Of a DNA stretch of 64,000 bases, positions 1-17,673 are shown piece after piece (the first letter of the stretch is position 1; each line of letters begins with the position of its first letter). The DNA comes from Patescibacteria group bacterium. GTDB lineage: Bacteria; Patescibacteriota; Minisyncoccia; GCA-002772825. Location of the stretch: contig JANLHB010000005.1 in the NCBI GenBank assembly GCA_024654625.1, positions 7,191 to 71,190 of the forward strand, read 5' to 3'. Made by a program: the position numbers and the translations under genes. The notes under the pieces are model-generated. The model ran no database searches. It was not told the DNA's origin and saw only the letters and a program-made list of their open reading frames with translations.

Positions 1-285
1 TCATCTTTAGGCAACACTGAAGAAATTGCACTATTACAAAAATTAATACAATTTCCAAAAGAAATAATGCTAGCAGCCGAAGAATTTAATCCGTCTCGCA
101 TTACTAACCATATTTTTGAAATATCAAGAAGTTTTAATCAATTTTATAACAAACACAAAGTTATATCTGATGATGTACCCCACGAACTAACTGCTGCACG
201 TCTAAATTTTATTCATGCTACGTCCATAGTGTTAAAACAAGGGTTAAACATGATAGGTATTGATGTATTAGAGAGAATGTAATAG
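1..285 (+). CDS. argS: arginyl-tRNA synthetase, C-terminal end (gene start lies left of the window)
   Basis: Frame 1 reads through from position 1 as ...EEIALLQKLIQFPKEIMLAAEEFNPSRITNHIFEISRSFNQFYNKHKV...LNMIGIDVLERM*. This is the typical ArgS DALR anticodon-binding C-terminus, which ends ...M. Confidence 0.8.
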
Positions 286-830
286 GCGACTTCCTTAATG
301 TCTCAAGAATTGAGAGAGGGAAGATAGATTATGAATTTACCAAGTTTGACCTTGGTAAGCTCGTCGACGAACTCTTCGAAGAGTTTAGTCTTAAGATGAA
401 GGAGGAAGGGAAGACGGATCCTAAACTCTACTTTGATACCGAGGTGAAAGGAGAAGTCGTGATAAACGCCGACGAAGGGAAGATCAAGCAAGTCCTCTCC
501 AACCTGATAGATAATTCTATAAAATACACACCTGTCCACCCGAACGGGCCGTCCGGTTTCGTGAAGATTATTTTTACTTTACCTAAAGATAAAGATGTCG
601 CCCTTGTGACTATTAAAGACTCCGGCGCTGGCATGAGCCAAGAAACTATGGGGAGGCTTTTTGATAAGTTCTCTCGGGCAGACAACGCCTCTAAGTTTAA
701 CACTGCCGGTTCCGGCCTCGGCCTCTATGTGGCCAAAGAGTTTATCTCCAAGCACAACGGCCGCCTCTGGGCGGAGAGTGCCGGCGAGGGGAAGGGTAGC
801 ACATTCTTCGTGGAGTTGCCGAAGGGGTAA
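286..830 (+). pseudogene. 5'-truncated sensor histidine kinase fragment, copy 1 of 6 (end of HisKA plus a complete HATPase_c domain); it starts 3 nt after the argS stop and has no H-box
   Basis: Frame 3 translates GDFLNVSRIERGKIDYEF...IDNSIKYT...DSGAGMSQE...GSGLGLYVAKEFISKHNGRLWAESAGEGKGSTFFVELPKG*. The phospho-acceptor His region and the sensor part are absent. Confidence 0.75.
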
Positions 831-840
831 AAAATAAAAA

Positions 841-3459
841 ATGACAGAAAAATATCAAAATAAGTGGATTGATGAAATAAATGAGGCGCATAAAGCTATT
901 AGCAAAATTTGTGTAAAGACAGATGTGAGAAATTTGTCGTGGCTGAAACGTATTGCAGGGATTGATGCGGTTGGGAAATTTGAGAATCAACAAAAGACAG
1001 GCTCTTTTAAATTTAGGGGTGCTTACAATAGATTAAGACGCAATGATCATTTAAGAAATATAATAGTAGCATCAGCGGGAAATCATGGTTTAGCTATAGC
1101 TGAAGCCGCAAAGATTCTTGGATTAAATGCAACAATCTGTATTCCAACAACAGCAAGTCCTCTAAAGCGTAACAGATTAGCTGCTTACGGGTATTCAATC
1201 GTTCCAATAGGAACTCAGCTTGAGGAGTCAACGATTTATGCGAAAAATGTGGCAGAAAAAAATAATTGGGATTTTATTTCTCCATATAATGATTCTCAAA
1301 TTATACAAGGGCAAGCCAGCGTTGCTTTAGAGTTTCTAGAACAGGTCCCCGATATAGATGTCCTTATTGTTCCAGTTGGAGGGGGAGGATTAATTAGTGG
1401 GGTAGGACTCATAGCAAAACAGATAAAACCGGGGATAAAAATAATCGGAGTTGAAGCAGAATCATATTCTTCAGTAGCGTCTTCGCTTAAAGCGGGTAAA
1501 ATAAAAAAAGTAATTAATTATCCAACTTTTGCTGACGGATTGGCTGTGAATCTTGAAGACCGCAGTATCACTTTCGATATAATAAAACAAATTGCAGATG
1601 ACATAATTTTAGTGAATGAAGAAGAGATAGCCGCCGCAGTGTTGGCATTGCTTTATCATGAGAGTCAATTAGTTGAACCGTCTGGAGCTGTAGGTTTGGC
1701 GGCTGTGATAAGTGGTAAAATCAGAACTGGAGCTAAGATTGGTATTATATTTAGTGGAGGGAATATAACGACTGGGAATCTCACTAAAATAATGAATTTC
1801 CCATTTCAAGATAAAAATTTATTTGATTTTATTAATATACATGGAGAAAAAATCTTACACAAAGTTCCACTAAAGGGTATTGATTTTTCTCTTCAAGGGT
1901 ATAAACAAAGAGGATTTCTTTCAGAAAATCAAGAGCTGGATGCACGAGAAGATATTGAATATTTGACAACAAGATTTGATGAAATAAAGCAGATTGTCCA
2001 CCGTATTCAAAATAGACTGAAAGAATATTTGGATTATTGTAATGTAGAGAAATTGAATGTTGATGAATCTGCGGTGTATACAATAACAAATCTCGAAAGA
2101 AATATTACTGAACTACTTGAACAAAACAAAGTGATAAATTTAAATTCAAATTTATCACCTGTTGAGTATGGTAGGCAGGTTACATCTAAATTACAAGCAT
2201 ATAGGTCACTTCTTCACATGGTGATGGTATCTTCGATGGTGCTTGATTGGAGGTCAGCTTCATATGGTCAGAGTTGGGATACTATGTTTTTCGCTTTGGA
2301 TAGTCAGGGGAATCCGGGGGTTAATTATAATAGATACGAAAGCAATCAATTGATTTCTGTAGAAAGGCAACTAGCTGAAGTATTAGGGCTTAATCAAGAA
2401 GAAATTGGACTTTTAGTAACATCTTCCGGTATGGCGGCTTATAATATTATTGAAGCTTATCTTCAGCGACATGTTTTAAAGCCAGGTGACACTGTATTGA
2501 TTCCCCAATATATATATTTTGAAACTGATGAACAGATATCGAAATTACCAAACATAAATATTAAACGAGCTAATACTCATGATATTAATGAAATATGCAA
2601 CCTCATTAAAAAAAATAAACCCAAGGTCGTTTTTCTTGATCCATTGACAAATACTGTTGAATTGCGTTTGACAGATGTAGGGGCTGTGATTAAACATATC
2701 TCGAAAGAGAATCTTAAAAATGATATCTATTTTGTTGTTGATGGAACAATGATGTCAGGGGAAATAAATCCATTCCCCGCAAGTGGTGCAAATTCTCGCG
2801 TGAAAGTTTTATATTATGATAGTTGCAGTAAATACCTTCAGTTGGGACTTGATATTGCCATGGGTGGGCTTGTCGCCATCCCAGTTGAATTTACCGCATT
2901 ATTTGATCGATTAAGGAGAAATACCGGGACAATTATGTATGATTCAGCTAGTAATATATTTCCAACATATTCACGCGAGATACATAGCAAAAGAATGAGA
3001 AGAATGAGTAGAAATGCGATTTTAATCAGTAATGCTATTAATCGAGATAATGAACTCTCTCGGGTGGTGCGAGTTCATTATCCTAATTTGAAATCACATC
3101 CTGATTATGCGCTGGCAGAGAGGTTTAATTCTGTCGGAGGTTTAGTGACTTTTACTTTTACCGACCCTTTTCTTAATCAGCGTGATTCACTAAATAGTTT
3201 CATAGAGACCGCGTTGTCTGTTGCGAAAAAATATGGTATTTCATTGACAAAAGGTGTAAGTTTTGGATTTTCTCTCCCTAGAATATCAGCGGCAACAGCT
3301 ATGGCAGAAAATTCGCCGCCTTTCTTGAGATTGTCGGCTGGAGACAGATCTTACAATGAAACAACATTACTTGCCGACGCTCTTATCGAAGCCTTTAGAA
3401 ATTATATTCATAGTTTTGATAGCCTTAATGATTGTAATAGTGAGACTTCTTCCTCTTAG
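841..3459 (+). CDS. two-domain PLP enzyme: an N-terminal fold-type II threonine/serine dehydratase-like domain fused to a C-terminal fold-type I Cys/Met-metabolism PLP enzyme (cystathionine gamma-synthase / methionine gamma-lyase family)
   Basis: The N-terminal part has GSFKFRGA (PLP lysine), SAGNHG and VGGGGLISG. The C-terminal part has LVTSSGMAAY, VVDGTMMSG and DSCSKYLQLGLDIAMGG (the S-x-x-K PLP lysine context of the CGS family). A ~150-aa linker separates the two parts. Confidence 0.65.
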   Translation: MTEKYQNKWIDEINEAHKAISKICVKTDVRNLSWLKRIAGIDAVGKFENQQKTGSFKFRGAYNRLRRNDHLRNIIVASAGNHGLAIAEAAKILGLNATICIPTTASPLKRNRLAAYGYSIVPIGTQLEESTIYAKNVAEKNNWDFISPYNDSQIIQGQASVALEFLEQVPDIDVLIVPVGGGGLISGVGLIAKQIKPGIKIIGVEAESYSSVASSLKAGKIKKVINYPTFADGLAVNLEDRSITFDIIKQIADDIILVNEEEIAAAVLALLYHESQLVEPSGAVGLAAVISGKIRTGAKIGIIFSGGNITTGNLTKIMNFPFQDKNLFDFINIHGEKILHKVPLKGIDFSLQGYKQRGFLSENQELDAREDIEYLTTRFDEIKQIVHRIQNRLKEYLDYCNVEKLNVDESAVYTITNLERNITELLEQNKVINLNSNLSPVEYGRQVTSKLQAYRSLLHMVMVSSMVLDWRSASYGQSWDTMFFALDSQGNPGVNYNRYESNQLISVERQLAEVLGLNQEEIGLLVTSSGMAAYNIIEAYLQRHVLKPGDTVLIPQYIYFETDEQISKLPNINIKRANTHDINEICNLIKKNKPKVVFLDPLTNTVELRLTDVGAVIKHISKENLKNDIYFVVDGTMMSGEINPFPASGANSRVKVLYYDSCSKYLQLGLDIAMGGLVAIPVEFTALFDRLRRNTGTIMYDSASNIFPTYSREIHSKRMRRMSRNAILISNAINRDNELSRVVRVHYPNLKSHPDYALAERFNSVGGLVTFTFTDPFLNQRDSLNSFIETALSVAKKYGISLTKGVSFGFSLPRISAATAMAENSPPFLRLSAGDRSYNETTLLADALIEAFRNYIHSFDSLNDCNSETSSS

Positions 3460-3489
3460 GATTTTTATTGGAATTATAATTTAATATAT

Positions 3490-4035
3490 TTGTTTATGGA
3501 GAAATCAAATTTTTTTGAAAAACGTATTGAAAGAATGCATAATGCCATAGAAATGGTTCCCACCAAAATTGAAGATATTGATCTTATTGCATCTTGGGAA
3601 TCAAAAGAACCAAATATAATATCTTGGACTAAAGAAAAACATGAATCTATAATAAATAATCCGCAATTCTTACACCTTCTAATTAGTAAGAAAGGTGATA
3701 ATATTGTTCCTGTTGGGTACTCTATTTTGGAAAAGGATTCGCCGGATGAATTGTCTCTAGAGTTTATACGTCTCGTTATATGTGATGAATACAAGAATAA
3801 GGGTTATGGAGTCCTAGCTTTTGAAAATATTTGGGAATTAGCTTTTGATAAATTAAAATATTCTAGAGTTTGGCATGATGTATTTATTGAAAATGAAAAG
3901 GCTATTAATCTTTACGAGAAACTTGGTTATAAAAAATTTAAAACTAGCATTGATTTAACATCCGGTAGAGAGTTGATTTTTTACGAAATGTCTAGCGATG
4001 ATTATTTTTCTAGAGAGAAAGATAATAATTCTTAA
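3490..4035 (+). CDS. GNAT-family N-acetyltransferase
   Basis: Acetyl-CoA motif A-like RLVICDEYKNKGYG and motif B-like NEKAINLYEKLGY. The length is 181 aa. Confidence 0.65.
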   Translation: MFMEKSNFFEKRIERMHNAIEMVPTKIEDIDLIASWESKEPNIISWTKEKHESIINNPQFLHLLISKKGDNIVPVGYSILEKDSPDELSLEFIRLVICDEYKNKGYGVLAFENIWELAFDKLKYSRVWHDVFIENEKAINLYEKLGYKKFKTSIDLTSGRELIFYEMSSDDYFSREKDNNS

Positions 4036-4156
4036 GATATATATTGTGCATAATATCAATATTACGTGGGCCACATTCAATAAGTAATTGCAACTATTAA
4101 TACATAGTGTTATATTTTAATTATTATTAACAGGGCAGAAAATTAAGTAAATTTTT

Positions 4157-6712
4157 ATGGAAAAGCCACCTGATATGCCTAATATCCCCAAAAACTTAAA
4201 CGAAGCGGAAAAAAAAGTTGAAGAAAAAGAAAGATATAATCCTTTTGAAAAAGAAAAATACTGGCAAGATTTCTGGGAAAAGGAAGGTATCTATAAATTT
4301 GATCCTGAGCAACCGGGCCCTCTTTATACTGTAGATACTCCGCCACCAACAATCTCCGGGTCATTGCACCTTGGGCATATTTTTTCTTATACTCAAGCGG
4401 AGGTAATCTCGCGGTTTAAAAGAATGCAAGGGAATAATGTTCGTTATTCTTTTGGTTTTGATAATAATGGTTTGCCAACAGAAAGGTTGGTGGAAAAGGA
4501 ACTTGGGATAAGAGGCGCTAATATGGATTTAGAAGATTTCACAAAAAGCTGCCTTGATATTACGAATAAATATAAACACCTTTATGAAGATCTATGGAAA
4601 TCAATAGGTCTTAGTGTAGACTGGCGACTAGAATATTCCAGTATTTCGCCGGAAGTTCAAAAGAAATCCCAGTCCACTTTTAAGGAGTTATATGAGAGAG
4701 GGGTTATTTATAAAAAAAATGCCCCGGCTCTTTATTGCACAGAGTGTCAGACTTCATTTGCTCAAGCTGAAAAAGAAGATAAAGAAAAAGAAGCTGTTTT
4801 TTATGATTTATCATTTAAGACTGAAGATGATCAGGAATTGATCGTCGCAACAACTCGCCCTGAATTACTGCCCGCATGCAGTGCTGTTTTTGTTAATCCG
4901 GACGATATTAGATTTAAAAACTTAATCGGTAAGAAAGTTATCACTCCCTTGGGAGATGGGGTTGAAATAATGGCTGATGAGAAAGTTGAAAAAGATAAAG
5001 GCTCCGGGGCGGTGATGTGCTGCACCTATGGTGATGAAACAGATATCTATTGGACAAAAAAATATAATTTGAATGAAAAAATCATATTAAACAGATATGG
5101 AAAATTTGAAGATGTAGATGAATTGCCTGACTTGAAAGGGAGGAGAGTAAATGAAGCTAGGAAAATTATCGTTGAAAAATTAAAGTCTGACGGGTTTATA
5201 AAAAAAGAAGAACAGATCAAGCATAATGTTGATGTTCATGAGAGATGCGGTACCCTGGTGGAATTTTTACCGACTACTCAGTGGTTTATGAAAGTACTCG
5301 ATATGAAAGAACGCCTCTTGGATGCGGGAACTCAAATAAAGTGGCATCCTTCATATATGAAGACAAGGTATGAAGATTGGATTAATGGTCTAAAGTGGGA
5401 TTGGTGTATTTCAAGAGAAAGATTTTACGGAATACCAATCCCTGTATTTAGCTGCGATAATTGTGAGAACGTTTTAATCCCAGAGGAAGATCAATTCCCG
5501 ATTGACCCCAAAAAAGAGAAAAATATTCATAATTGTACTGCTTGCGGTGAAGGTAAAATGCTCCCGGAGAAAAATGTCTTGGATACATGGTTTACCTCGT
5601 CTTTATCGCCAGACATAAATAATGACAATCCATTAAATGGCGGATTGAATGGCAAGTTATATCCAATGTCGGTGAGGCCTCAAGCTCACGATATAATTAG
5701 AACATGGGCTGTGTATTCTATCTTGATGGGCTTGTATAAGCATAATGAGATTCCGTGGAGAGATTTAATGATCTCCGGACATATTTTGGTGCAGGAGGGA
5801 GAAAAGATTAGTAAGAAGACCGGTGGAGGAAAATATAAGCCGGAAGAATTAATTGCGACACATTCAGCGGATGCTGTCAGGTATGCGATGTGTGGCGCTT
5901 CGTTAGGCAGAGATTCATATTTTGACGAAAAGGAAGTGAAGAAGGGTAAAAAATTAGTCACTAAAATCTATAATGCCGGCAAGCTGGTGCTTAGTAAACT
6001 GGAAGGATTTGATCCTAAAGTAGAAATAAAAGAAGATGAGCTGGAGGCAATTGACAGGTGGATATTAGACAGATCATTTGAGACGGCAAGTAAGATGTCT
6101 GAATCTTTTGAAAATTATGAATTCAGCCAAGCGCGCCAGATTTTTGAAGACTTTTTTTGGAAAGATTTTTGTGATAATTATTTGGAGATTGTAAAAAGGA
6201 GGCTGGCAATAAAGCCGGACGATAATAAAGAGAAAATGTCAGCGCAATTCACGTCTTACAATTGTTTTCTTAGTGTTATGAAGATGGCTTCTCCTTTTAT
6301 CCCTCATATAACAGAAGAAATGTTCCACGCTCAAACAGTAAAGAAAGAAGATAATGGAGTTGTAAAAGAATCTGTTAGCTCGGAAAGTGGTGGTGGTTAT
6401 TTTTCCAATAATGAAAATATTAAAAGTATACATAGTACTCAGTGGCCATCAACATCACTTGAGTATTCTAATCATGAAAATAATGAAAATGCCAATTTAG
6501 CCTTAGATGTTATCTCAAAAATAAGAAGATTTAAGACTGATAATAAAATAAAATTTGGTACACAAATTACTTTGTTAAAAATAAGATGTCGAGAAGAACA
6601 AAAAAATAAATTAAACGGTTTTTTAGATGATATTACTTCTTTAGCAAAGGCAAATAGTGTTGAAATCGAAATAACAAGTGACGAAGAACTGATTGTAGAG
6701 ATTAGAGTTTAA
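4157..6712 (+). CDS. class Ia aminoacyl-tRNA synthetase (Leu/Ile/Val family), divergent copy with KISKK in place of the canonical KMSKS
   Basis: HIGH region SGSLHLGHIFSY...RFKRMQGNNV...GFDNNGLPTE; WDWCISRERFYGIPIP; DTWFTSS; GEKISKKTGG. The length is 851 aa. It has its own TTGCAA-17-TATATT promoter at about 4098-4126. Confidence 0.6.
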   Translation: MEKPPDMPNIPKNLNEAEKKVEEKERYNPFEKEKYWQDFWEKEGIYKFDPEQPGPLYTVDTPPPTISGSLHLGHIFSYTQAEVISRFKRMQGNNVRYSFGFDNNGLPTERLVEKELGIRGANMDLEDFTKSCLDITNKYKHLYEDLWKSIGLSVDWRLEYSSISPEVQKKSQSTFKELYERGVIYKKNAPALYCTECQTSFAQAEKEDKEKEAVFYDLSFKTEDDQELIVATTRPELLPACSAVFVNPDDIRFKNLIGKKVITPLGDGVEIMADEKVEKDKGSGAVMCCTYGDETDIYWTKKYNLNEKIILNRYGKFEDVDELPDLKGRRVNEARKIIVEKLKSDGFIKKEEQIKHNVDVHERCGTLVEFLPTTQWFMKVLDMKERLLDAGTQIKWHPSYMKTRYEDWINGLKWDWCISRERFYGIPIPVFSCDNCENVLIPEEDQFPIDPKKEKNIHNCTACGEGKMLPEKNVLDTWFTSSLSPDINNDNPLNGGLNGKLYPMSVRPQAHDIIRTWAVYSILMGLYKHNEIPWRDLMISGHILVQEGEKISKKTGGGKYKPEELIATHSADAVRYAMCGASLGRDSYFDEKEVKKGKKLVTKIYNAGKLVLSKLEGFDPKVEIKEDELEAIDRWILDRSFETASKMSESFENYEFSQARQIFEDFFWKDFCDNYLEIVKRRLAIKPDDNKEKMSAQFTSYNCFLSVMKMASPFIPHITEEMFHAQTVKKEDNGVVKESVSSESGGGYFSNNENIKSIHSTQWPSTSLEYSNHENNENANLALDVISKIRRFKTDNKIKFGTQITLLKIRCREEQKNKLNGFLDDITSLAKANSVEIEITSDEELIVEIRV

Positions 6713-6722
6713 TTTATTTAGA

Positions 6723-6978
6723 CTGCCCTCGTGACTATTAAAGACTCCGGCGCTGGCATGAGCCAAGAGACGTTGGATAAAATCTTCGAGAAATTCAACC
6801 GAGCTAAAGATGCCTCCAAGTTCAACACCGAAGGCTCCGGCCTCGGCCTCTACGTGGCTAAAGAGTTCATCGCCAAGCACAACGGCAAGTTGTGGGCGGA
6901 GTCAGCGAGCGTCCCGCCGTGGCGGGATAAAAAGGGAAAGGTAGCACATTCTTCGTGGAGTTGCCGAGGGAGTAGGGG
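6723..6978 (+). pseudogene. histidine-kinase 3' fragment, copy 2 (HATPase_c tail, frameshifted by a ~25-bp insertion that contains the palindrome cccgccgtggcggg)
   Basis: Translation: VTIKDSGAGMSQETLDKIFEKFNRAKDASKFNTEGSGLGLYVAKEFIAKHNGKLWAESA, then the insertion, then ggtagcacattcttcgtggagttgccgaggg. A 38-bp stretch is identical to copy 1. The rest diverges mainly at synonymous sites. Confidence 0.75.
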
Positions 6979-6980
6979 GG

Positions 6981-7469
6981 ATGATAAATATGTTTTATTT
7001 TATAAAAATTATAAATATTTTAAGAAAAATATATTGGTTTATATTCAGGCCTACCACAATAGGGGTCAGGCTTCTAAATATATACAATAATGAAGTTTTA
7101 CTTGTAAAACATACTTATTCTAGTAGCTGGTATTTACCCGGAGGAGGTGCTAAAAATGGAATAGATATTATAGACTCGCTTAAGAGAGAAATTAAAGAAG
7201 AACTCAATATAGATCTTAACGAAGGTCAATTGAGTAGTGCCGATCTGTTTGGAGTTTATGATAATTTCCAGGAATATAAAAACGATTATATCTTTCTGTT
7301 TATCTTAGATAATTTAAAATTAAATTTAACTAAAGCAAAAAATATTGAAATAGAAGAGGCTGGATATTTCAATATTAATAATCTCCCTGGTAGCATATCT
7401 GCCGGTACAAAAAGAAGAATAAATGAGTTTTTATCAAGAAAAGATAAAGTAATAATAAGTAAGTGGTAG
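6981..7469 (+). CDS. NUDIX hydrolase
   Basis: Nudix box LPGGGAKNGIDIIDSLKREIKEELNI. The start follows the gaggg/gggggg stretch at the end of the fragment, which can act as a Shine-Dalgarno sequence. Confidence 0.6.
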   Translation: MINMFYFIKIINILRKIYWFIFRPTTIGVRLLNIYNNEVLLVKHTYSSSWYLPGGGAKNGIDIIDSLKREIKEELNIDLNEGQLSSADLFGVYDNFQEYKNDYIFLFILDNLKLNLTKAKNIEIEEAGYFNINNLPGSISAGTKRRINEFLSRKDKVIISKW

Positions 7470-8749
7470 AGAAAGAAAATAAAATAAAGGCATTAACTCA
7501 ATACAGAGGATTTACTGTTCTTAAGTCTCTGGAGGCAGCTAGTGAAAGAATAGAAATATTAAAAGATATATTGGGAATTAGTGATAATCTAGAATTATTG
7601 AATATTGCAAAAAACGATCCAGAAAAGATACTTTCAAATCTCGGTAATTTATACGACGCCATAGGACCTCGGTCTATGGGGATCAATCCGACCCCTGTAT
7701 GTAATAGACAGTGTACTTTCTGTTCTAGTAGGCAAAGAAATAAGATAAATATAGAAGATAATATTGAAATAACGGAGGATAAATTAAGGAAAGTTTTTGA
7801 AGATTTTATAAGCATGAAAGGGGGAGGGTGTGTGCTGGTTGGTGGAGGAGAGGCATTATTAGCCTGCAAAGGCAAACTTAATGAAGTTATTAATGATTAT
7901 GATTTATATTATGGATTCAATACAAATGGTGTGAATTTGGATAAATTTACGCATGAAAAATTATTAGAAAAAACAAAATGGGTATCACTCAGTTTAATTG
8001 GACACAATAAAGATACATATAATTCTACAGCTGGATTAGATTCTTCAAGTGGTCAGTTTGATGTATTAAATGATAATCTTAAAAAATATATAGAAATAGC
8101 TGATGATTTAAATAGGGAAGGTAAAAGTCATCCCTATATATCAGCAAAAATATTGATATGTAGAGAGAATTATTTATATTCCGGAGAAATATATAATTAT
8201 GCAAAATATTTAGGATTCAAAGATATTTCCCTGAGATGCGTAAACAATTTTGAAATAGAAGAAGAATATAGAAAGAGAAAAATTATTCCTCAAGATATAG
8301 AGCTAACTAAGAAGGAGAAAGAGCAGATAAAAAGTATATTAACCAAAGAAACCGATTTATCAGAAGAGATAATATTTAATATATTGGGTTTACGGGATAA
8401 AATTAAAAATGATACGGTGGTTATAAACCCTACGCTATGTTGGAATGTAGTATTAGGTTTAATAATAAATTTAGATACAAACGGAGAAGTTTTTCTATGT
8501 AACCCAAGGATAGGAATGGAAAGTTTTAGTATTGGAAACATTAATTCAATGAGTCTAAAAAGTCTTTGGAGTGGTTCTATCCATGTTGATGTTGTTAAAA
8601 AAACTTATAAAACATTTAATAAGGGCGCTTGTGACTTAAGTAAATGTCGACACTTTCGTGTAGATCAAGTTATAGAGCAGTTTTTAGAAGGAAAGATATC
8701 ATTAAAAGATAGAAGTTTCGGTGATAAGCAAATGAGTTTTTTCCCTTAG
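7463..8749 (+). CDS. radical SAM protein with a C-terminal SPASM/twitch-like Cys-rich domain and a ~75-aa N-terminal extension
   Basis: CNRQCTFC (CxxxCxxC). C-terminal motifs: NLDTNGEVFLCNP and GACDLSKCRHF. Confidence 0.6.
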   Translation: MVEKENKIKALTQYRGFTVLKSLEAASERIEILKDILGISDNLELLNIAKNDPEKILSNLGNLYDAIGPRSMGINPTPVCNRQCTFCSSRQRNKINIEDNIEITEDKLRKVFEDFISMKGGGCVLVGGGEALLACKGKLNEVINDYDLYYGFNTNGVNLDKFTHEKLLEKTKWVSLSLIGHNKDTYNSTAGLDSSSGQFDVLNDNLKKYIEIADDLNREGKSHPYISAKILICRENYLYSGEIYNYAKYLGFKDISLRCVNNFEIEEEYRKRKIIPQDIELTKKEKEQIKSILTKETDLSEEIIFNILGLRDKIKNDTVVINPTLCWNVVLGLIINLDTNGEVFLCNPRIGMESFSIGNINSMSLKSLWSGSIHVDVVKKTYKTFNKGACDLSKCRHFRVDQVIEQFLEGKISLKDRSFGDKQMSFFP

Positions 8750-8753
8750 AGTT

Positions 8754-8988
8754 TTTTGGAGAAATTCAACCGCGCAGACAACGCCTCCAAGTTCAATACT
8801 GCCGGTTCCGGCCTCGGCCTCTATGTGGCTAAAGCCCCAACACTATCGCTTATCGCGAAAGTGAGGGGTAAAAATTCATCGCCAAGCACAACGGCAAGTT
8901 GTGGGCGGAGTCTGCCGGCGAGGGCAAAGGTAGCACATTCTTCGTGGAGTTGCCGTTAATCTCGACTGGTGTTGAGAAGAAGGGGTAA
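8754..8988 (+). pseudogene. histidine-kinase 3' fragment, copy 3 (disrupted by two short insertions)
   Basis: EKFNRADNASKFNTAGSGLGLYVAK [~40-bp insertion] FIAKHNGKLWAESAGEGKGSTFFVELP [~24-bp insertion] aaggggtaa. Confidence 0.75.
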
Positions 8989-9001
8989 AATGAGGTATAA
9001 T
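8972..9001 (+). promoter_or_regulatory. sigma70-like promoter TTGAGA-18-TATAAT, 7 nt upstream of the ATG at 9009 (leaderless-type arrangement)
   Basis: ttgaga at 8972-8977, which lies inside the second insertion of copy 3. tataat at 8996-9001, followed by ctctata and the ATG. Confidence 0.4.
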
Positions 9002-9008
9002 CTCTATA

Positions 9009-9893
9009 ATGAAATTTGAATTTAGAATCTCAAAATGGGCGAATTTTTATTATTTTGTCCAGAATCTCTCAGAATGGCATTTTAGTAATCGTAAAGATTA
9101 TAATATTTTTTGGAGAGAAAAGCTCAAATCTTTCTCAAAAGATGAGGAATCTGTATTAGAAAAATTTAAAGAGATTAGATTTAAATACCCTAAGACAAAA
9201 AGTTGTTTTGAAAGGGCTTTTTTTCTGTCAGAAAGCCCTTTTGAAGAATTGAATAAATGTTTATCTGAAAGAGAATATTTAACAATGAAGGAAATTTTTA
9301 ATGTTTTAGAGGATAAGTTTGATGCTCTGTATAAAGAAGATGAAGTTCTTCTTAAAAAATGGAAAGATGCATTGAGTGAAGAATCTAATGATAAAAACCT
9401 TATAATAAAAATATTGTCTATATTAAAAATCTTATACAAAAGCAATATTGATACACAAGAAGTTTCTGTCACTCTTTTATTTTCTACTCCTGAGCACATA
9501 GGAGGTGGTGCCAATATAGACCGCAATATGATTAGTCTAGAAGTTTCCCGTTACCCGATAGAAAATATAAATCAAGCCATAGGTATTATTTGGCATGAAA
9601 TAATACATTTGATGTTTCAAGAACGGTATTTTTCATTATTATTGGATTATTTTAAGGAAGATGAGCAGGTAGCTGACCTTGTTAATGAGTTAACCGCTGG
9701 ATCATTATTTCCAAATGGAATTTTAGGTATACGAATATTAAAGAATAAACCATCTACTCAATTATTGCCACAAGTTACCAAAGGGCAAACTATTATGATT
9801 ATTAATTTGGCAAAGGAGTATGTTGAAAAAGGCAGTCAACTGGACAGGAATTTTATCAATAGGTTGATAGATATTATTAAGGAGAAGAATTAA
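9009..9893 (+). CDS. hypothetical protein with an HExxH motif; putative zinc metallopeptidase
   Basis: WHEIIHLMF. There is no other recognisable domain. A convergent terminator hairpin at 9905-9938 follows it. Confidence 0.35.
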   Translation: MKFEFRISKWANFYYFVQNLSEWHFSNRKDYNIFWREKLKSFSKDEESVLEKFKEIRFKYPKTKSCFERAFFLSESPFEELNKCLSEREYLTMKEIFNVLEDKFDALYKEDEVLLKKWKDALSEESNDKNLIIKILSILKILYKSNIDTQEVSVTLLFSTPEHIGGGANIDRNMISLEVSRYPIENINQAIGIIWHEIIHLMFQERYFSLLLDYFKEDEQVADLVNELTAGSLFPNGILGIRILKNKPSTQLLPQVTKGQTIMIINLAKEYVEKGSQLDRNFINRLIDIIKEKN

Positions 9894-9944
9894 AAAAATG
9901 TCCGTCTGAGAAAATAAATTCTCAAACGGACATTTTGGAGGGGG

Positions 9945-10127
9945 TTAACCGCTTATGTCTCCCCACCCTGGGTCGCCGCCGCCGAGGTCGTCCCAATTAC
10001 CCCATTGGTCATCCCAGCCCTTAACGTCTTGTGCTTCTTGCTCTCGACATTCGCGCGGTGTGGCGTTTATGTCGAGGAGACTCCTTGTCCTTTCAGAAGC
10101 TCCCTTGATTGCGTTTGAGCCTGTCAT
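9945..10127 (-). CDS. 60-aa Trp/Asp/Gly-rich small protein translationally coupled to the upstream radical SAM-SPASM gene; candidate RiPP precursor peptide
   Basis: MTGSNAIKGASERTRSLLDINATPRECREQEAQDVKGWDDQWGNWDDLGGGDPGWGDISG. On the minus strand a strong SD, gaaaggagataaaaATG, overlaps the last codons of the radical SAM gene. The region is a local GC-rich patch. Confidence 0.45.
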   Translation of the reverse strand: MTGSNAIKGASERTRSLLDINATPRECREQEAQDVKGWDDQWGNWDDLGGGDPGWGDISG

Positions 10128-10129
10128 TT

Positions 10130-11266
10130 TTATCTCCTTTCTATCCGCGGGGGCGGATGGTTTATTTTCCTCACCTTATCTTCAAGGTAAGTAAAAATTT
10201 CTTTTCTAGTCTCGCAGTAGTAGTATTTTCCTTTTACACCTCCTTTCCTATGCATTGTGCAACCGTTATGACAAGCTTTTTCCCATTTGCACATAATGCA
10301 ATCCTGATGCAGATCGTTCACACCTTTTGCATAATTCATTCTTTCTGATCCATTTAGTATATCTAAGAGCGAAGATCTCGAGATATCACCTAATAGGAAA
10401 TTAGGTTGACCTGATGACCTGTCGCATGGGTAAATTCTCCCATCGTATTCAAGACAGAAATATCCCGAGCATGAGCCGTTAAATGAACATCCAGAACTCT
10501 TTTTCCCGAAGATGACCGCGATAAAGTTTTCAATCTCGCGAAGAGCAAGATTAGGATCGTCTTTATCGAGCCAAAGATTGATCTGTTCTTTGAGAAATCT
10601 CGTCAGTTGCTTGTTTGTCAGACCATGGCTATTTGATTTTAAGCCATTTTGTTCCAGGTCAAGATATACGTTCGTGCCCCACTTCTTGATGCCAAGCTCA
10701 TCCGCAAAAAAATGAAAATTTTCTTTTGTGGATGAAAGACTGGAGGATGTAATAGTCTGAATAAATCCCGGTTTTATGCCGTGCTTACGGATGATCTCTA
10801 GCCCTCTCATTACTGAAGAAAATGTCCCTTTGTCGTTGTTGTTTTTTCTGAATCGGTCATGGCTTTCTTTGTTACCATCTAAGCTAATGCCCACTCGAAA
10901 CTGGTATTTTTTGAAGAGCTCAGCCCACTCGTCGTTGATAAGAGTAGCATTGGTCTGTATAAAGTTTTGAACTTTTTGACCGTTTCTGGTGTTAGACGAT
11001 TGAATACGGACGGCTTCTTCGAAGAAGGGGATACCTGCAAGCAATGGTTCTCCACCGTGCCAGATGAAAGAAAGATTTTCGTTAAAGAGAAGTATGTATT
11101 CGCTTAAAAACTTCTCTAACAGTTCAAAATCCATGATACTGTGAGTAGACTGATCTTTGTCGTTATAGAAGCAGTAGCCACAGCGAAGGTTGCAGTAATC
11201 TCCCGCTGGTTTTATGATTGGGACCATCGTTTTAAGTGGGGAAGTAAGTAACACCCGGTTTTTCAT
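10130..11266 (-). CDS. radical SAM enzyme with a SPASM domain (anSME / RiPP-maturase type)
   Basis: CNLRCGYC near the N-terminus. SPASM motifs: CSGYFCLEYDGRIYPCD and CIMCKWEKACHNGC. A strong SD, aaggaggataaaATG. Confidence 0.75.
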   Translation of the reverse strand: MKNRVLLTSPLKTMVPIIKPAGDYCNLRCGYCFYNDKDQSTHSIMDFELLEKFLSEYILLFNENLSFIWHGGEPLLAGIPFFEEAVRIQSSNTRNGQKVQNFIQTNATLINDEWAELFKKYQFRVGISLDGNKESHDRFRKNNNDKGTFSSVMRGLEIIRKHGIKPGFIQTITSSSLSSTKENFHFFADELGIKKWGTNVYLDLEQNGLKSNSHGLTNKQLTRFLKEQINLWLDKDDPNLALREIENFIAVIFGKKSSGCSFNGSCSGYFCLEYDGRIYPCDRSSGQPNFLLGDISRSSLLDILNGSERMNYAKGVNDLHQDCIMCKWEKACHNGCTMHRKGGVKGKYYYCETRKEIFTYLEDKVRKINHPPPRIERR

Positions 11267-11320
11267 TTTATCCTCCTTGCGTTGTATAGATAAAGGTTAT
11301 TTTTATTTTTTAAAGATCAT

Positions 11321-11350
11321 TTGACAAAGTACAGTTCTAATATGTATAAT
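11321..11350 (+). promoter_or_regulatory. sigma70-like promoter TTGACA-18-TATAAT that reads into HK-fragment copy 4 and the MntA/HepT pair
   Basis: ttgaca at 11321-11326 and tataat at 11345-11350. It lies in a divergent intergenic region shared with the minus-strand radical SAM gene. Confidence 0.5.
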
Positions 11351-11433
11351 GCATATATTATGATTGAAAGTCAACATCAACAAGTTGTAAGCGCCCTAGT
11401 TGTTTTTAATAAGAAATTGCTTCTTTTATAAAA

Positions 11434-11610
11434 GCAAAATCTTCGAGAAGTTCAACCGCACTAAAGACGCCTCCAAGTTCAACACCGAAGGCTCCGGCCT
11501 CGGCCTCTATGTGGCTAAAGAGTTCATCAATAAGCACAACGGCCGCCTCTGGGCGGAAAGCCCGGGGGAGGGCAAAGGGAGTACATTCTTCGTGGAATTG
11601 CCGAGGGGGG
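11434..11610 (+). pseudogene. histidine-kinase 3' fragment, copy 4
   Basis: IFEKFNRTKDASKFNTEGSGLGLYVAKEFINKHNGRLWAESPGEGKGSTFFVELPRG. Its end, ccgaggggggtggtagtATG, supplies an SD for the next gene. Confidence 0.75.
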
Positions 11611-11617
11611 TGGTAGT

Positions 11618-12088
11618 ATGGCGTTAGGAGGTATTTCCTGGTATAATGTTTCTATGAATTTATCCAGAGAGCAGAAAATTAAATTAGCTGATTTTGCCGA
11701 AGCAAATGGTATAAAGTTTATAGTTTTGTTCGGCTCGCAGTCTAGAAAAACTTCTAAAAAAGATAGTGATTTTGATATTGCTGTATTAACAACGCCGGAG
11801 AAGAGCATTTTTGAGAGTTTGGAAAATTATAATAATCTTTTGTTTGGCCTATCTGCTATCTTAGAAATACCGGATTATAAGTTTGATCTAACTGATCTGA
11901 ACAATGCTAATATATTGTTGAGATATGAGATTGTTTCGAGCGGGCAGTTATTGTTTGGAGATGAGATCGATTATCTTGAATTTAAATCTTTTGCGACTAG
12001 GGAGTATATTGACGCTAAGAGATTGTTTGATCTTGAAGATTTTTTAATCAAGAAAAAGCAACGATTACTTTCAGAAGTAGTTCTTTAA
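11618..12088 (+). CDS. nucleotidyltransferase, MntA-type antitoxin
   Basis: LFGSQSRKTSKKDSDFDIAVL (GS...D-x-D). It is paired with the downstream HEPN gene. Confidence 0.65.
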   Translation: MALGGISWYNVSMNLSREQKIKLADFAEANGIKFIVLFGSQSRKTSKKDSDFDIAVLTTPEKSIFESLENYNNLLFGLSAILEIPDYKFDLTDLNNANILLRYEIVSSGQLLFGDEIDYLEFKSFATREYIDAKRLFDLEDFLIKKKQRLLSEVVL

Positions 12089-12093
12089 TTACT

Positions 12094-12561
12094 ATGATAA
12101 AAGAAGATTTTGTAAAAAGGAAAATATCATTGATCCAAGATGAACTCAGTAATCTTGAGCGTCTTTCGCATTATTCTTTTGATGAGATAGCAAGCGACCC
12201 CATAAAGCAGGGAGCATTGGAACGCTTTCTTGAAAGGGTTATTAATAGAGCAATAGATATCAATAATCATATTATCGCAGAGCTTGCAGGTCTTGATACT
12301 GCTACGCCGAAGGATTACACAGATAGTTTCTTGGAGTTGGCGAAGTTGGGTATCTATACTAAAGAGTTTGCGGAAAGTATTTCTAAAAGTGCTGGAACGA
12401 GAAATGTGCTTGTGCATGAATATGATAAAATTGACCAGACTAGGATTTATAATTCAGTCGCGGATTGCTTGCGTGATTATCATAAATATTGCGGATACAT
12501 TTTAGAGTTTCTTGAAAAACAACCAAAGGAGAAATACAACCAAAGGAGAAATAATTTGTGA
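12094..12561 (+). CDS. HepT/DUF86 HEPN-domain toxin
   Basis: R-x4-HEY motif RNVLVHEYD. Confidence 0.65.
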   Translation: MIKEDFVKRKISLIQDELSNLERLSHYSFDEIASDPIKQGALERFLERVINRAIDINNHIIAELAGLDTATPKDYTDSFLELAKLGIYTKEFAESISKSAGTRNVLVHEYDKIDQTRIYNSVADCLRDYHKYCGYILEFLEKQPKEKYNQRRNNL

Positions 12562-12576
12562 GGAGCTTGCTGGTGT

Positions 12577-12668
12577 CACGCCGTGGCGGGATAAAAAGAG
12601 GAAGGCTCGCCCGGATGAACCCGTTCGGACGGGGTAGCACATTCTTCGTGGAGTTGCCGAGGGGGTAG
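12577..12668 (+). pseudogene. histidine-kinase 3' fragment, copy 5 (only the last ~35 nt of the CDS plus the same cgccgtggcgggataaaaag element as copy 2 and a second small hairpin)
   Basis: cacgccgtggcgggataaaaag...cccgttcggacgggg tagcacattcttcgtggagttgccgagggggtag. Confidence 0.7.
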
Positions 12669-12677
12669 GGGATAGTT

Positions 12678-13085
12678 TTACTTTTTGATGAGATGATAAA
12701 TTTCCTTGATATATTCTTTTAGATTGTTATAGCTCAATACCGAAGATACCTCATTTGTCGGTACCCATTTAATGTCATCCCCTTTAAATTCCGGCCTTAA
12801 GAGGGTGTCGTCCTCAGATTGCACTAGAAACATTTTTATTGAAATATTATTTCCATTTGGATGTGTGTAATTTATGTCCGGTAAATCGCATAAAATTTCT
12901 ACTAATAGCCCTGTCTCCTCTTTAACTTCTCTAATCATTGCGTTAGTCGGATCCTCACCATCCTCAATGTGTCCCTTGGGAAAGGACCAATCTTTTTGTT
13001 TCCCACTATAAAGCAGGGCAATTTTACTTTGATCATCCTTACTCAAAATAATAGCGCCGGCTTTCTGGATTAATTTAATAGTCAT
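12678..13085 (-). CDS. NUDIX hydrolase
   Basis: Nudix box GHIEDGEDPTNAMIREVKEETGL. Confidence 0.7.
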   Translation of the reverse strand: MTIKLIQKAGAIILSKDDQSKIALLYSGKQKDWSFPKGHIEDGEDPTNAMIREVKEETGLLVEILCDLPDINYTHPNGNNISIKMFLVQSEDDTLLRPEFKGDDIKWVPTNEVSSVLSYNNLKEYIKEIYHLIKK

Positions 13086-13135
13086 AGTTAGTATTACACT
13101 ATATCACTTATATACCTTTTAGGTTGCAGGTACCC

Positions 13136-13831
13136 CTATTGGGTGATTTTTTTTGCAATTAAAATTAGCCTTGGACTGGTCAAAGAATATTCACTAAAAT
13201 CATAGTTGCCGATAACACGCTCAACAGAAAAACCGGATTTTTCCATCCATTGACTCCAAACAGGATAAGGTGGGTATGGAATTCTAAGATTAGCTTTTTT
13301 ATCGATAAGCTCTAATTTTTTCGCATCAAATGCAAATGGCGAGTTAGGATTTTTCTCAAGGTAAGAAACGATCCTAAATAAATTATCCGTATCAATCAGA
13401 ATTTTGCCTCCGGGTTTAATGTTGCGACCTATTGAAGAGACTGCCTTTTCAATGTTGATGTTGGCTAAGTCGGAGAAAAACCAGTATGCCTTGTCATATT
13501 TCTTTCTTAACTTTAGTTGTTCAATATTGGCTTTATAATAATTCGGCGTTCTTTTGCCGGATTTTTTAGATTCATCTTTTGCTTTACTAAGTAGGTATTT
13601 AGAAAAATCAACACCGTCTACTAAATAACCTCTTTCACTTAGGGCTTTTGTGTGGCGACCTTGCCCGCAAGCAATATCAAAGATGGTATCATTTTTTTTA
13701 AGACTAAGAGCTTTAATTAAAAAGTCAGAATCTTTCTTTATACTTGCTGAAGTTAGAAATGAATCATGATCCTTTAAATAATCACCCTTTTCTCCGTAGT
13801 ATTTAGATAAAAATTCTTTAGATTTTGACAT
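13136..13831 (-). CDS. class I SAM-dependent methyltransferase
   Basis: Motif I IFDIACGQGRHT. The length is 231 aa. Confidence 0.65.
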   Translation of the reverse strand: MSKSKEFLSKYYGEKGDYLKDHDSFLTSASIKKDSDFLIKALSLKKNDTIFDIACGQGRHTKALSERGYLVDGVDFSKYLLSKAKDESKKSGKRTPNYYKANIEQLKLRKKYDKAYWFFSDLANINIEKAVSSIGRNIKPGGKILIDTDNLFRIVSYLEKNPNSPFAFDAKKLELIDKKANLRIPYPPYPVWSQWMEKSGFSVERVIGNYDFSEYSLTSPRLILIAKKITQ

Positions 13832-13904
13832 GGTGTATTCTTATATGTATTAATATACTGGATAATATATCAAATAGAAGGTAAAGATGATAGTATGTAT
13901 AATG

Positions 13905-13938
13905 TGACCCATTCTTCGTGGAGTTGTCGTAGGGGAGA
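13905..13938 (+). repeat. histidine-kinase 3' fragment, copy 6 (shortest remnant: tgacccattcttcgtggagttgtcgtagggg)
   Basis: It matches the terminal ~30 nt of the other copies. It is preceded by tatgtataatg, the same -10 context that lies upstream of copy 4. Confidence 0.65.
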
Positions 13939-13977
13939 GAGTAGATTTGATAATAGTTTTTATGGTATAATGTTCTT

Positions 13978-14268
13978 ATGGAAAAAGACGTTATTATTAA
14001 AAAATTGGATAAAAGCCTGTCGGTTTTGAAAGAGAAATACAATGTGAGAAGCATTGGTGTTTTCGGTTCGTATGTAAGAAATGAGGCAAAGGCAGGGAGT
14101 GATTTGGATATTTTAGTCACATTTGAAAAGCCGATAGGATTGTTAAAATTTATAGAACTGGAAAATTATCTCTCAGAATTGACAGGAATAAAAGTTGATT
14201 TGGTATCTCAGAAAGCGCTTAAGCCCAGGATAGGAAAGCAGATATTGGAAGAAGTGGTGAATGTCTGA
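13978..14268 (+). CDS. nucleotidyltransferase, MntA-type antitoxin (second copy, a divergent paralog)
   Basis: VFGSYVRNEAKAGSDLDILV. Confidence 0.65.
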   Translation: MEKDVIIKKLDKSLSVLKEKYNVRSIGVFGSYVRNEAKAGSDLDILVTFEKPIGLLKFIELENYLSELTGIKVDLVSQKALKPRIGKQILEEVVNV

Positions 14269-14623
14269 TCTTATGAAAAGAGATTATCTGGATTATCTTC
14301 AAGATATTATTGACTCAATAAATGACATTGAGAGTTTTGTTGGTGGGATGAATTTTAATTCGTTTGAAAAAGATAAAAAAACTATGAATGCGGTTGTAAG
14401 GAGCTTAGAGATAATCGGCGAAGCTGTTAAGAAAATACCGGAAGATGTGAAGGATAAGTACTCAGATATTCCATGGAAGAATATGTCGGGCATGAGAGAT
14501 AAACTAATCCATGAATACTTTGGCATTGATGAAGAGATTGTTTGGAATGTTGCAATAGAAGAATTGCCTCCTCTTGGGTCATTGTTTAAAAAAATTTTAA
14601 CAGAATCGGGGACGGAGGAATAA
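14261..14623 (+). CDS. HepT/DUF86 HEPN toxin (second copy)
   Basis: RDKLIHEYFGID. Confidence 0.65.
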   Translation: MSDLMKRDYLDYLQDIIDSINDIESFVGGMNFNSFEKDKKTMNAVVRSLEIIGEAVKKIPEDVKDKYSDIPWKNMSGMRDKLIHEYFGIDEEIVWNVAIEELPPLGSLFKKILTESGTEE

Positions 14624-14627
14624 GGCC

Positions 14628-15377
14628 ATGCATATACTAAGGACAAGATTTAAAAAAGAGATAGTGGCTGAATTCTTACCTCCATCAAGGATGTTAAAAG
14701 AGAATAAAGTTATCATCTTTTGCCAGGGGATGCCTAGTGGATCTTCAAAGAAAGACCTTCTCGAATTCTTTAGTAAGAAGGGATACTGGGTATTTCACCC
14801 GCGTTATAGAGGTTCATGGGAGAGTGGAGGCGAATTCCTGAAGCTTTCGCCTCATCAAGATATCTTGGACATTATAGAGCAATTGCCAAAAGGGTTCCGT
14901 AGCGCGTGGGACGGTAAACTCTTTAAGGTGAATCCGGATAAAGTTTATCTTTTTGGTTCAAGTTTTGGCGGTCCGGCCGCTATTCTTGCTTCAGGGTATC
15001 CTTTAGTAGATAAGGTGGTGGTGTTTTCTCCCGTTATCGATTGGAGGTCTCCAAGTAAGGTGGAGCCTCTTGATCAACTGGGCAGGTTCGTCAAGACTGG
15101 TTTCGGAGAAGCTTATCGTTTTCCGATCAAAAATTGGAATAAATTAAAAAATGGCAAATTCTATAATCCTATTGCCGAGACAAAGGATATAGATGGGAAG
15201 AAAATATTTATCATCCACGCTAAAGACGACGAAGTGGTGTCATACATACCCTCAAAAAAATTCTCAGAAAAGACAGGCTGTAAGCTGGTTTTACTGAAAA
15301 AGGGAGGGCATTTATCAGCAAAAAATTTCATCAAAAAGAGTTTCTATAAAAAAATAAGGTGGTTTATTAAAGAGTAA
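14628..15377 (+). CDS. alpha/beta hydrolase (dienelactone hydrolase / S9 peptidase-like)
   Basis: Nucleophile elbow LFGSSFGG (G-x-S-x-G). Confidence 0.5.
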   Translation: MHILRTRFKKEIVAEFLPPSRMLKENKVIIFCQGMPSGSSKKDLLEFFSKKGYWVFHPRYRGSWESGGEFLKLSPHQDILDIIEQLPKGFRSAWDGKLFKVNPDKVYLFGSSFGGPAAILASGYPLVDKVVVFSPVIDWRSPSKVEPLDQLGRFVKTGFGEAYRFPIKNWNKLKNGKFYNPIAETKDIDGKKIFIIHAKDDEVVSYIPSKKFSEKTGCKLVLLKKGGHLSAKNFIKKSFYKKIRWFIKE

Positions 15378-15383
15378 TTATTA

Positions 15384-15671
15384 ATGACCAAAAAATTTCA
15401 GCGGAATATTGAGGACTTCGTGTGCGGGCATTGCGGGGCGAGAGTCAGGGGCAACGGCTACACTAACCATTGCCCCAAGTGCCTGTGGAGCAAGCATGTG
15501 GATGTGAACCCGGGCGACAGGGGAGCGGACTGCGGAGGGATGATGAAGCCCGTTTCTGCCGAGCAGAAGAGTGGAGAGTGGCGGATCCTCCATAAGTGTG
15601 AGAAATGCGGACATGAGAAGATAAACAGGCTATCAAAAGATGACGACTTTGATAAAGTGACGAAGATGTAA
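15384..15671 (+). CDS. RNHCP-domain zinc-ribbon protein
   Basis: CGHCG...TNHCPKC...CEKCGH. The gene is GC-rich compared with its flanks. Confidence 0.45.
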   Translation: MTKKFQRNIEDFVCGHCGARVRGNGYTNHCPKCLWSKHVDVNPGDRGADCGGMMKPVSAEQKSGEWRILHKCEKCGHEKINRLSKDDDFDKVTKM

Positions 15672-15711
15672 TCTTAACCTCGATATAAGTTCGTGATATA
15701 ATTACCTCGTT

Positions 15712-17514: not shown

Positions 17515-17572
17515 TAAAAACACATCTCCATTCATTTGGTCCACTTGGAAACCGAGTTTCCAAGTCCAAGTG

Positions 17573-17596: not shown

Positions 17597-17610
17597 TAAA
17601 TAAGATAAAA

Positions 17611-17651: not shown

Positions 17652-17673
17652 ATTGTTTGTGTCGTTTGCCTGT

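Follow-up and report, generated by a model that had tools for sequence, protein, structure and literature searches.

A two-domain pyridoxal-phosphate enzyme encoded beside valS in a Patescibacteria genome belongs to a rare family repeatedly linked to valyl-tRNA synthetase genes

We analyzed a 64-kb stretch (hereafter the window) of a contig from a metagenome-assembled genome of Patescibacteria, the candidate phyla radiation (CPR). It contains three intact genes on the same strand, which encode a protein with two pyridoxal 5'-phosphate (PLP) domains, a GNAT acetyltransferase and a valyl-tRNA synthetase (ValRS), and which are inherited together, as a block, in one Paceibacterota lineage. The family of the PLP protein is rare and uncharacterized, and its association with ValRS-family genes, of four kinds, is specific and recurrent. 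A previous reading of this DNA (the original prediction) had proposed that the trio makes or resists an amino acid analogue, the synthetase being a divergent copy that gives resistance or a dedicated charging activity. To judge from the sequences, the functional part of this idea is plausible, and it has received unexpected comparative support. The interest of the locus now rests mainly on the linkage of PLP and ValRS genes across phyla, not on any peculiarity of the window ValRS. Our best reading, for and against which we consider the evidence evenly balanced, is that of a cryptic pathway that leads to an amino acid resembling valine and is functionally coupled to ValRS; in this genome it would have been inserted beside the housekeeping valS gene.

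RECURRENT LINKAGE OF THE PLP FAMILY TO ValRS GENES

The three open reading frames (ORFs) of the original prediction, spanning 841-6712, are real, intact and all on the + strand:

841-3459, + strand, PLP fusion protein of 872 aa (NCBI MCR4342302.1)
3490-4035, + strand, GNAT acetyltransferase of 181 aa, TTG start with an ATG at 3496
4036-4156, + strand, spacer between the GNAT and ValRS genes, 121 nt, AT-rich (23% GC), with one weak promoter-like site at 4088-4116
4157-6712, + strand, ValRS of 851 aa (NCBI MCR4342304.1, named valine--tRNA ligase)

Both NCBI proteins are encoded on one contig of 105,920 bp. The same order of PLP, GNAT and ValRS genes recurs in two other genomes (loci L080 and L172), with protein identities of 72-79%. 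Between the window and L080 the identities are 77% for the PLP protein, 72% for the GNAT and 77% for the ValRS; in L172 the ValRS (P0122) is 79% identical to that of the window, and the PLP gene is interrupted by the contig end. The spacer that precedes valS measures 57 nt in these two loci, versus 121 nt in the window. The DNA similarity of the window to the related blocks is confined to the coding parts (865-4021 and 4156-6703) and the flanks are unrelated. Therefore, the three genes stayed together while their surroundings changed. The proposal that the trio belongs together thus gained comparative support, since the block recurs, the GNAT recurs and ValRS genes are enriched around the family; the part that made the synthetase a paralog or a resistance factor was not supported (see below). 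The genes that the window shares with the complete genome L081 are paralogs only. The synthetase gene had also been given its own promoter, a claim that finds no statistical backing: there is one 9/12 sigma-70-like site at 4088-4116, and the tested region contains 15 such sites versus 23 expected from shuffled sequence, fewer than by chance. No RNA element or T-box was detected upstream of valS.

The linkage extends to the PLP family as a whole. We compared family loci, i.e., genomic and metagenomic stretches retrieved by alignment to the PLP protein, with control loci containing plain threonine dehydratases returned by the same scans. ValRS-type genes were present in the retrieved stretch of 12 of the 52 non-redundant family loci and in none of the 105 controls (Fisher p = 7e-7, an optimistic value since the family loci are phylogenetically non-independent). 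Seven other single-copy housekeeping genes gave 0 to 1 match each in the same 52 loci. There are about 10 different arrangements of PLP and ValRS genes, in five or more phyla, and even with this non-independence they are hard to put down to chance.

The linked ValRS genes are of four kinds. The first is alt_ValS (NF000540), found in L026, L031 and L012 with scores of 966-1353 bits for a cut-off of 900; in L026 it lies one short ORF away from the PLP gene and is divergently transcribed. The second is a bacterial-type ValRS of about 720 aa, encoded directly upstream of the fusion in the CPR loci L085, L090 and L102, and found also beside a gene for a stand-alone C-terminal half of the PLP protein (C-half; L029) and in Nocardia (L011, where it is cut by the locus edge). 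The third consists of degenerate paralogs of about 680 aa, devoid of editing motifs, encoded directly 3' of a stand-alone C-half (L023, L025 and L101). The fourth is an archaeal-type ValRS that lacks the entire CP1 editing domain and retains the HAGH, KLSKR and anticodon-binding regions (L169, 15769-17658, 629 aa). Its gene closes an operon composed of two Asn-synthase-like genes, a gene for a PLP-cl2 protein (cl2 is described below) and two succinyl-CoA-synthetase-like genes. The loss of editing in several partner ValRS fits the keeping of a non-cognate residue on the tRNA; alternatively, it could fit an escape from a toxin acting at the editing site.

Ordinary ValRS genes can also be neighbors of the family. 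In another CPR lineage (L165-168), an ordinary ValRS is directly followed by a stand-alone C-half, and a tRNA-Val(UAC) gene is found 3.6 kb further on. In both L165 and L029 this tRNA gene follows the stand-alone C-half at a distance of about 3.6 kb; the two loci are otherwise syntenic, yet their ValRS differ in type (archaeal-like, 848 aa, versus bacterial-type, 735 aa):

L165, 17868-17942, tRNA-Val(UAC)
L029, 12283-12357, tRNA-Val(UAC)

As a separate observation, the alt_ValS by the Plantactinospora cluster (L031, 19484-22024) has a degenerate HIGH motif, LHLGT, in which the second His is replaced.

A FUSION OF TWO PLP DOMAINS

The fold-II/fold-I fusion of the original prediction was confirmed by hidden Markov models, with two Pfam domains in a single protein: PF00291 at residues 26-306 (E 1.7e-68, 231.6 bits for a gathering cut-off of 35) and PF01053 at residues 471-784 (E 1.3e-25, 90.3 bits for a gathering cut-off of 27). 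The motifs on which it was based (GSFKFRGA, SAGNHG, GGGGLISG, SSGMAAY, VVDGTMMSG and SCSKYLQLGLDIAMGG) are all found in the translation. The protein is organized as follows:

Residues 1-320, fold-II domain, TdcB/serine-dehydratase-like
Residues ~360-470, three-helix linker
Residues 471-872, divergent fold-I domain, cystathionine-gamma-synthase/lyase-like

In the AF2 model (mean pLDDT 86.3), the domains are bridged by three long helices at 364-468, and neither the PDB sequence searches nor those with Foldseek returned a solved structure spanning both PLP domains. The architecture had been called unusual. It is indeed rare, without being unique: about 90 of the 120 homolog clusters listed keep both domains, at 830-890 aa. 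Since these clusters come from independent assemblies, the fusion is not an assembly artifact; an assembly chimera is ruled out by them and by the linker, which is confidently modeled as helices. When 1.84 billion representatives were scanned with the C-half, 149 matched at E<=1e-30; about half of these are fusions and about half are stand-alone C-halves of about 500 aa. We found no description of the fusion family in the literature.

Both PLP sites look active, and the second seems to bind a free amino acid, because the key residues do not vary among 20 aligned homologs from six phyla. These include the Schiff-base lysines K57 and K664, the S78/N81/H82 residues and the glycine loop GGGG of the fold-II domain, the pyridine-binding D634, the phosphate clamp Y496-x-R498 and the carboxylate-binding R830. 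It is the invariance of the clamp, Asp634, Lys664 and Arg830 that argues for a free amino acid as the substrate of the C-terminal domain.

The N-terminal domain has its best PDB sequence matches in the catabolic threonine dehydratase TdcB and in serine racemases (E ~1e-56), and superimposes on TdcB with a Foldseek TM-score of 0.91 (normalized by the TdcB chain) at 34% identity. It scores under every NCBIfam equivalog cut-off (e.g., 290 versus 379 for TIGR01127), and no specific function is assigned to it. Like the members of the TdcB and serine racemase group (PF00291), it has the catalytic lysine and the SAGNH and GGGG motifs; unlike them, the protein lacks a regulatory domain and continues through the three-helix linker into a second PLP domain. 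The N-terminal domain looks like a dehydratase rather than a racemase because Ala79 replaces, in SAGNH, the serine needed by serine racemases. The C-terminal domain is far under all NCBIfam equivalog cut-offs. It shares with cystathionine gamma-synthase, gamma-lyase and methionine gamma-lyase (PF01053) the Schiff-base Lys, the Asp, the Y-x-R and the C-terminal Arg. It differs from these enzymes in having SxSKY for SxTKY and YIYFE for YGGT and in carrying about 130 additional, helical residues at its N-terminal end, and it forms a small family of its own.

Threonine-dehydratase-type and gamma-synthase/lyase-type PLP families can both produce 2-oxobutanoate. The fusion could thus be a bifunctional deaminase of primary catabolism, by which a scavenging symbiont would convert Thr/Ser and Met, homocysteine or cystathionine to 2-oxobutanoate, ammonia and sulfide, with the GNAT and the ValRS being unrelated to it. 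The presence of a RidA gene near the fusion in L170 would agree with such a role. We regard it nonetheless as very improbable, given that the family is very rare and patchily distributed, is embedded in clusters of tailoring enzymes, and has a C-terminal domain highly divergent from the catabolic lyases (best PDB E 8e-13).

Two homologs, P0022 and P0024, show Trp at conserved glycines throughout (e.g., SAWNHW). They are Gracilibacteria-type genes translated with UGA as Trp, and the alignment indicates that UGA is Gly.

AN ORDINARY ValRS

The synthetase had been described as being of the Leu/Ile/Val type. The class was right, and the protein is more specifically a ValRS, since it passes two NCBIfam equivalog cut-offs: PRK13208 with 914.8 bits (cut-off 738) and TIGR00422 with 684.1 bits (cut-off 612.1). 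These scores rule out a LeuRS or an IleRS. The anticodon-binding domain PF08264 is present. On the evidence of its sequence, this is an ordinary ValRS of Patescibacteria, archaeal-like and of the PRK13208 type. It is no divergent paralog, as its identity to over 100 Patescibacteria ValRS clusters is 54-91%. The KISKK motif, previously taken to be non-canonical, is normal in this clade: KGEKISKKTGG occurs in 91 of 115 aligned homologs. HLGH and KISKK are intact, as are the two CP1 editing motifs, TTRPE and TYGDETD, and all four are standard for the lineage. The lesson for annotation is that KISKK is a lineage trait and not the sign of a paralog.

A class Ia phylogeny had been suggested as a check. 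The neighbor-joining tree nests the window ValRS deep among those of CPR, and its neighbors include orthologs without a PLP gene in their vicinity, one of which comes from a complete genome of 742 kb. When the PLP-linked clade is compared with 115 other ValRS at columns with a conservation of 85% or more, the sole difference is I230V, a conservative change; no resistance-type substitution was found. By motifs and by phylogeny, this outcome goes most of the way to what the original prediction had named as its refutation, a canonical ValRS in an ordinary place, and no resistance variant is recognizable. A related alternative is that the gene is a divergent extra copy, for resistance or dedicated charging, with a normal ValRS encoded elsewhere in the genome. 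This pattern does exist in other loci of the PLP family (alt_ValS, CP1-less and degenerate paralogs). For the window it seems improbable to us: the protein passes both equivalog cut-offs with every motif typical of its lineage, it is placed among orthologs of module-free genomes, including the complete one, and the 64-kb window encodes no second ValRS. Compared with alt_ValS, the window ValRS shares the broad archaeal-like type but falls in the standard CPR clade, and it scores 666.5 bits with NF000540, under the cut-off of 900.

One homolog of the window ValRS (P0126, 73% identical) has 1342 aa, owing to an N-terminal extension of 490 aa found in 19 member sequences. This extension may be a read-through of, or a fusion with, a conserved upstream ORF.

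A GENERIC GNAT THAT ACCOMPANIES THE PLP GENE

The downstream neighbor of the PLP gene was correctly predicted to encode a GNAT acetyltransferase. The protein passes Pfam PF00583 and PF13302 (Acetyltransf_3; 35 bits versus 25.4), and the acetyl-CoA motif region is conserved in its 181 aa. These features identify it, as far as similarity can tell, as a generic acetyltransferase of the acetyl-CoA type. Its likeness to MccE holds at the level of the superfamily only. A profile built from six PLP-linked GNAT homologs has its best PDB matches in AAC(6') and diamine/spermidine acetyltransferases, and MccE is not among the best 60 of its 61 PDB matches. The match of the GNAT to ArsN1 (E 0.006) is far under the cut-off of that family.

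The association of the GNAT with the PLP gene is itself recurrent. Orthologs adjoin the PLP gene in L080, L172, L002, L085 (on the opposite strand) and L170, and another is near it, without adjoining it, in the actinomycete Plantactinospora (L031). The PLP gene is thus accompanied by this GNAT family in five different contexts, plus one actinomycete. MccE2 is a GNAT that protects against a poison of aminoacyl-tRNA synthetases (PMC8323819). The window GNAT resembles the immunity acetyltransferases MccE2, PAT and ArsN1 in being small and in adjoining a probable amino-acid-analogue enzyme; it differs from them in that, among solved structures, AAC(6') and diamine acetyltransferases are closest to it.

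GENE CONTEXTS OF THE PLP FAMILY

Members of the family are found in biosynthetic-type clusters of at least five phyla (Actinomycetota, Myxococcota, Pseudomonadota, Acidobacteriota and CPR). Among the sources of these clusters are Actinosynnema, Phycicoccus, Nocardia, Intrasporangiaceae, Haliangium, Sorangium, Ideonella, Rugamonas, Paracidovorax and Pseudomonas. There, the neighbors encode B12-radical-SAM enzymes, carbamoyltransferases, an ICMT-like methyltransferase, P450s and glycosyltransferases, together with AMP-binding and condensation domains, aconitase-family proteins, fatty-acid desaturases, heme-oxygenase-like oxidases and MFS exporters. In CPR, the PLP gene is associated with the GNAT or with cl2, with two Asn-synthase-like genes and sometimes with a succinyl-CoA-synthetase-like pair.

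The cl2 protein has about 373 aa, and its gene immediately follows that of the PLP fusion in nine loci of various phyla, e.g.:

L001, 12565-13686, cl2
L003, 8372-9499, cl2

In P0018 and P0020 it is fused to the PLP protein, of which it forms the C-terminal ~370 aa. It is likely to be a partner in the pathway. We considered that it could be a Fem/GNAT-like transferase and rejected this, because it has no sequence similarity in Pfam or the PDB and no profile similarity to GNAT.

Amide-forming enzymes recur among the partners of the family, and one can conceive that the ValRS supplies the pathway instead of being its target. Val-tRNA or Val-AMP made by the ValRS would then be used by a transferase to join valine to the amino acid derived from the PLP enzyme. 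The recurrence of Asn-synthase-like pairs, a succinyl-CoA-synthetase-like pair, AMP-binding proteins and condensation domains is in line with such a tRNA-dependent assembly, and so is the tRNA-Val gene near the module in L165 and L029. ValRS paralogs without editing would be expected if a non-cognate residue had to be charged. Fem-type aminoacyl-tRNA transferases are much larger than 181 aa, and the window GNAT has an acetyl-CoA-type motif. The amide-forming partners are also absent from the window. We find this assembly doubtful as an account of the window, while noting that it overlaps with our favored reading and does not exclude it. A precedent is the SerRS paralog AbmK of albomycin, which supplies substrate and confers immunity (PMC8323819).

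A CRYPTIC PATHWAY COUPLED TO ValRS OR A COINCIDENCE OF NEIGHBORS?

The coupling that we favor could work as follows. The PLP enzyme would convert a common C3/C4 amino acid into a non-proteinogenic amino acid of the size of valine. The dehydratase-type domain could use Thr/Ser, and the gamma-synthase-type domain homoserine, an O-acyl-homoserine, Met or Cys-type compounds. The GNAT would N-acetylate the product or an intermediate, either for self-protection (cf. PAT, ArsN1 and MccE2) or as a pathway step. The ValRS would activate the product or be its target. Bacteria with large genomes would use a ValRS paralog dedicated to the pathway, and in the small CPR genome the PLP-GNAT pair would lie directly upstream of the housekeeping valS gene, with which it is probably co-transcribed. 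A more specific version, which we put forward tentatively and think less likely than its negation, is that of a widely transferred pathway to a valine mimic or valyl conjugate that is loaded by ValRS or targets it. The paralogs devoid of editing would in that case be dedicated activating or immunity enzymes, and the CPR version would be a minimal one wired to the only valS.

Albomycin provides a parallel, as do other clusters for synthetase inhibitors that carry the target synthetase, and the double role of AbmK is a precedent for this coupling too. Among the enzymes of the albomycin cluster are PLP and radical-SAM enzymes, a carbamoyltransferase and a methyltransferase (PMC8323819). As in albomycin, an aminoacyl-tRNA synthetase is linked to a specialized-metabolite cluster, and the same types of enzymes recur around the PLP family in actinomycetes. 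Unlike in albomycin, the synthetase of the window is the housekeeping copy and the window lacks nucleoside-building genes. The two reviews searched (one being PMC8323819) mention no natural product directed at ValRS.

The main rival for the window locus is that the genes are neighbors by coincidence, the PLP-GNAT pair having arrived, as an accessory module of two genes, in a variable stretch by a housekeeping valS to which it is functionally unrelated. The window ValRS is ordinary, the block sits in an array of accessory cassettes (see below), and GNAT-PLP modules without ValRS occur in L002 and L170. Upstream of valS, related genomes have a mixture of unrelated accessory genes (APH, GT2, DegT, NUDIX and a GNAT), which makes a coincidence at a hot spot possible in the lineage of the window. 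On the other hand, ValRS genes are specifically enriched near the PLP family across many phyla and arrangements, the three genes remain linked in three genomes though both flanks changed, and other CPR lineages have independently paired valS with a family member (L165, L102, L085 and L090). We therefore judge the coincidence to be rather unlikely, a standing well above that of the catabolic, extra-copy and tRNA-dependent alternatives. Further points weigh against a coupling. Several close relatives of the fusion lack a ValRS gene in the surrounding 10 kb (L001, L002, L003 and L170). Save for I230V, the window ValRS is indistinguishable from orthologs without a PLP neighbor, and its placement in the tree is normal. 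The similarity of the GNAT to known acetyltransferases is generic, and our literature searches gave no product, substrate or activity for any member of the family.

If the coupling is true, it would reveal an undescribed class of valine antimetabolite or of ValRS-dependent natural product, and a new PLP chemistry in which two sites of a single chain cooperate. In the more specific version given above, the pathway would be the first natural antimetabolite system directed at ValRS. To our knowledge, CPR bacteria are generally thought to lack specialized metabolism, of which this would be a rare case in ultra-small genomes. The PLP-GNAT pair is a compact two-gene system that can be directly expressed and assayed.

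AN ARRAY OF HISTIDINE-KINASE REMNANTS AROUND THE BLOCK

The PLP-GNAT-ValRS block is the first unit of an array delimited by six 3' ends of histidine-kinase genes. These are truncated at the 5' end, lie on the + strand between window positions 283 and 13946, and all stop at the same point. The block is bounded by the following features:

283-830, + strand, histidine-kinase remnant 1, 5'-truncated, HATPase_c PF02518 without HisKA
6725-6983, + strand, histidine-kinase 3' remnant 2, frameshifted, right-hand boundary of the block
Start at 6981, NUDIX gene, its start overlapped by the tail of remnant 2

The remnants are associated with repeat families D1-D4 and have in common the 20-mer CATTCTTCGTGGAGTTGCCG, with six matches versus 0 expected. 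The remnants have 47-60% GC versus 29-37% in the cassettes between them. The frame of remnant 1 is open from 264, abuts the ArgRS stop at 282 and has its own stop 10 nt before the PLP start. In cassettes 1, 2 and 4, the G-rich tail of the remnant lies 5-13 nt ahead of the start codon of the first gene, and that of remnant 1 may serve as the ribosome-binding site of the PLP gene.

The other cassettes contain NUDIX, radical-SAM/SPASM, MNT-HepT toxin-antitoxin and methyltransferase genes. We found no integrase, transposase or recombinase in window positions 1-18,000, and the 20-mer is absent from every other locus, including L080 and L172, and from viral contigs. The block thus has neither a recombinase nor recombination sites shared with its copies in L080 and L172, as a mobile cassette would. 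Hence, "cassette" is a fair term for the layout of the window locus, and in this sense only. A phage origin was rejected, the PLP fusion being, like the 20-mer, absent from viral contigs. So was a role in anti-phage defense, as PADLOC gives no match for the PLP, GNAT or ValRS proteins.

Elsewhere in the array, two radical-SAM/SPASM proteins (7463-8749, + strand, and 10130-11266, - strand) have weak PADLOC matches to prokaryotic viperins (E 1e-6 and 2e-12, respectively). A pair of MNT (Pol-beta nucleotidyltransferase) and HepT genes at 11618-12561 and a second HepT gene at 14261-14623 are both inside the cassette array. Further along the window, there are two direct repeats of 70 nt, at 41152-41221 and 41296-41365, which are 73% identical and 144 nt apart.

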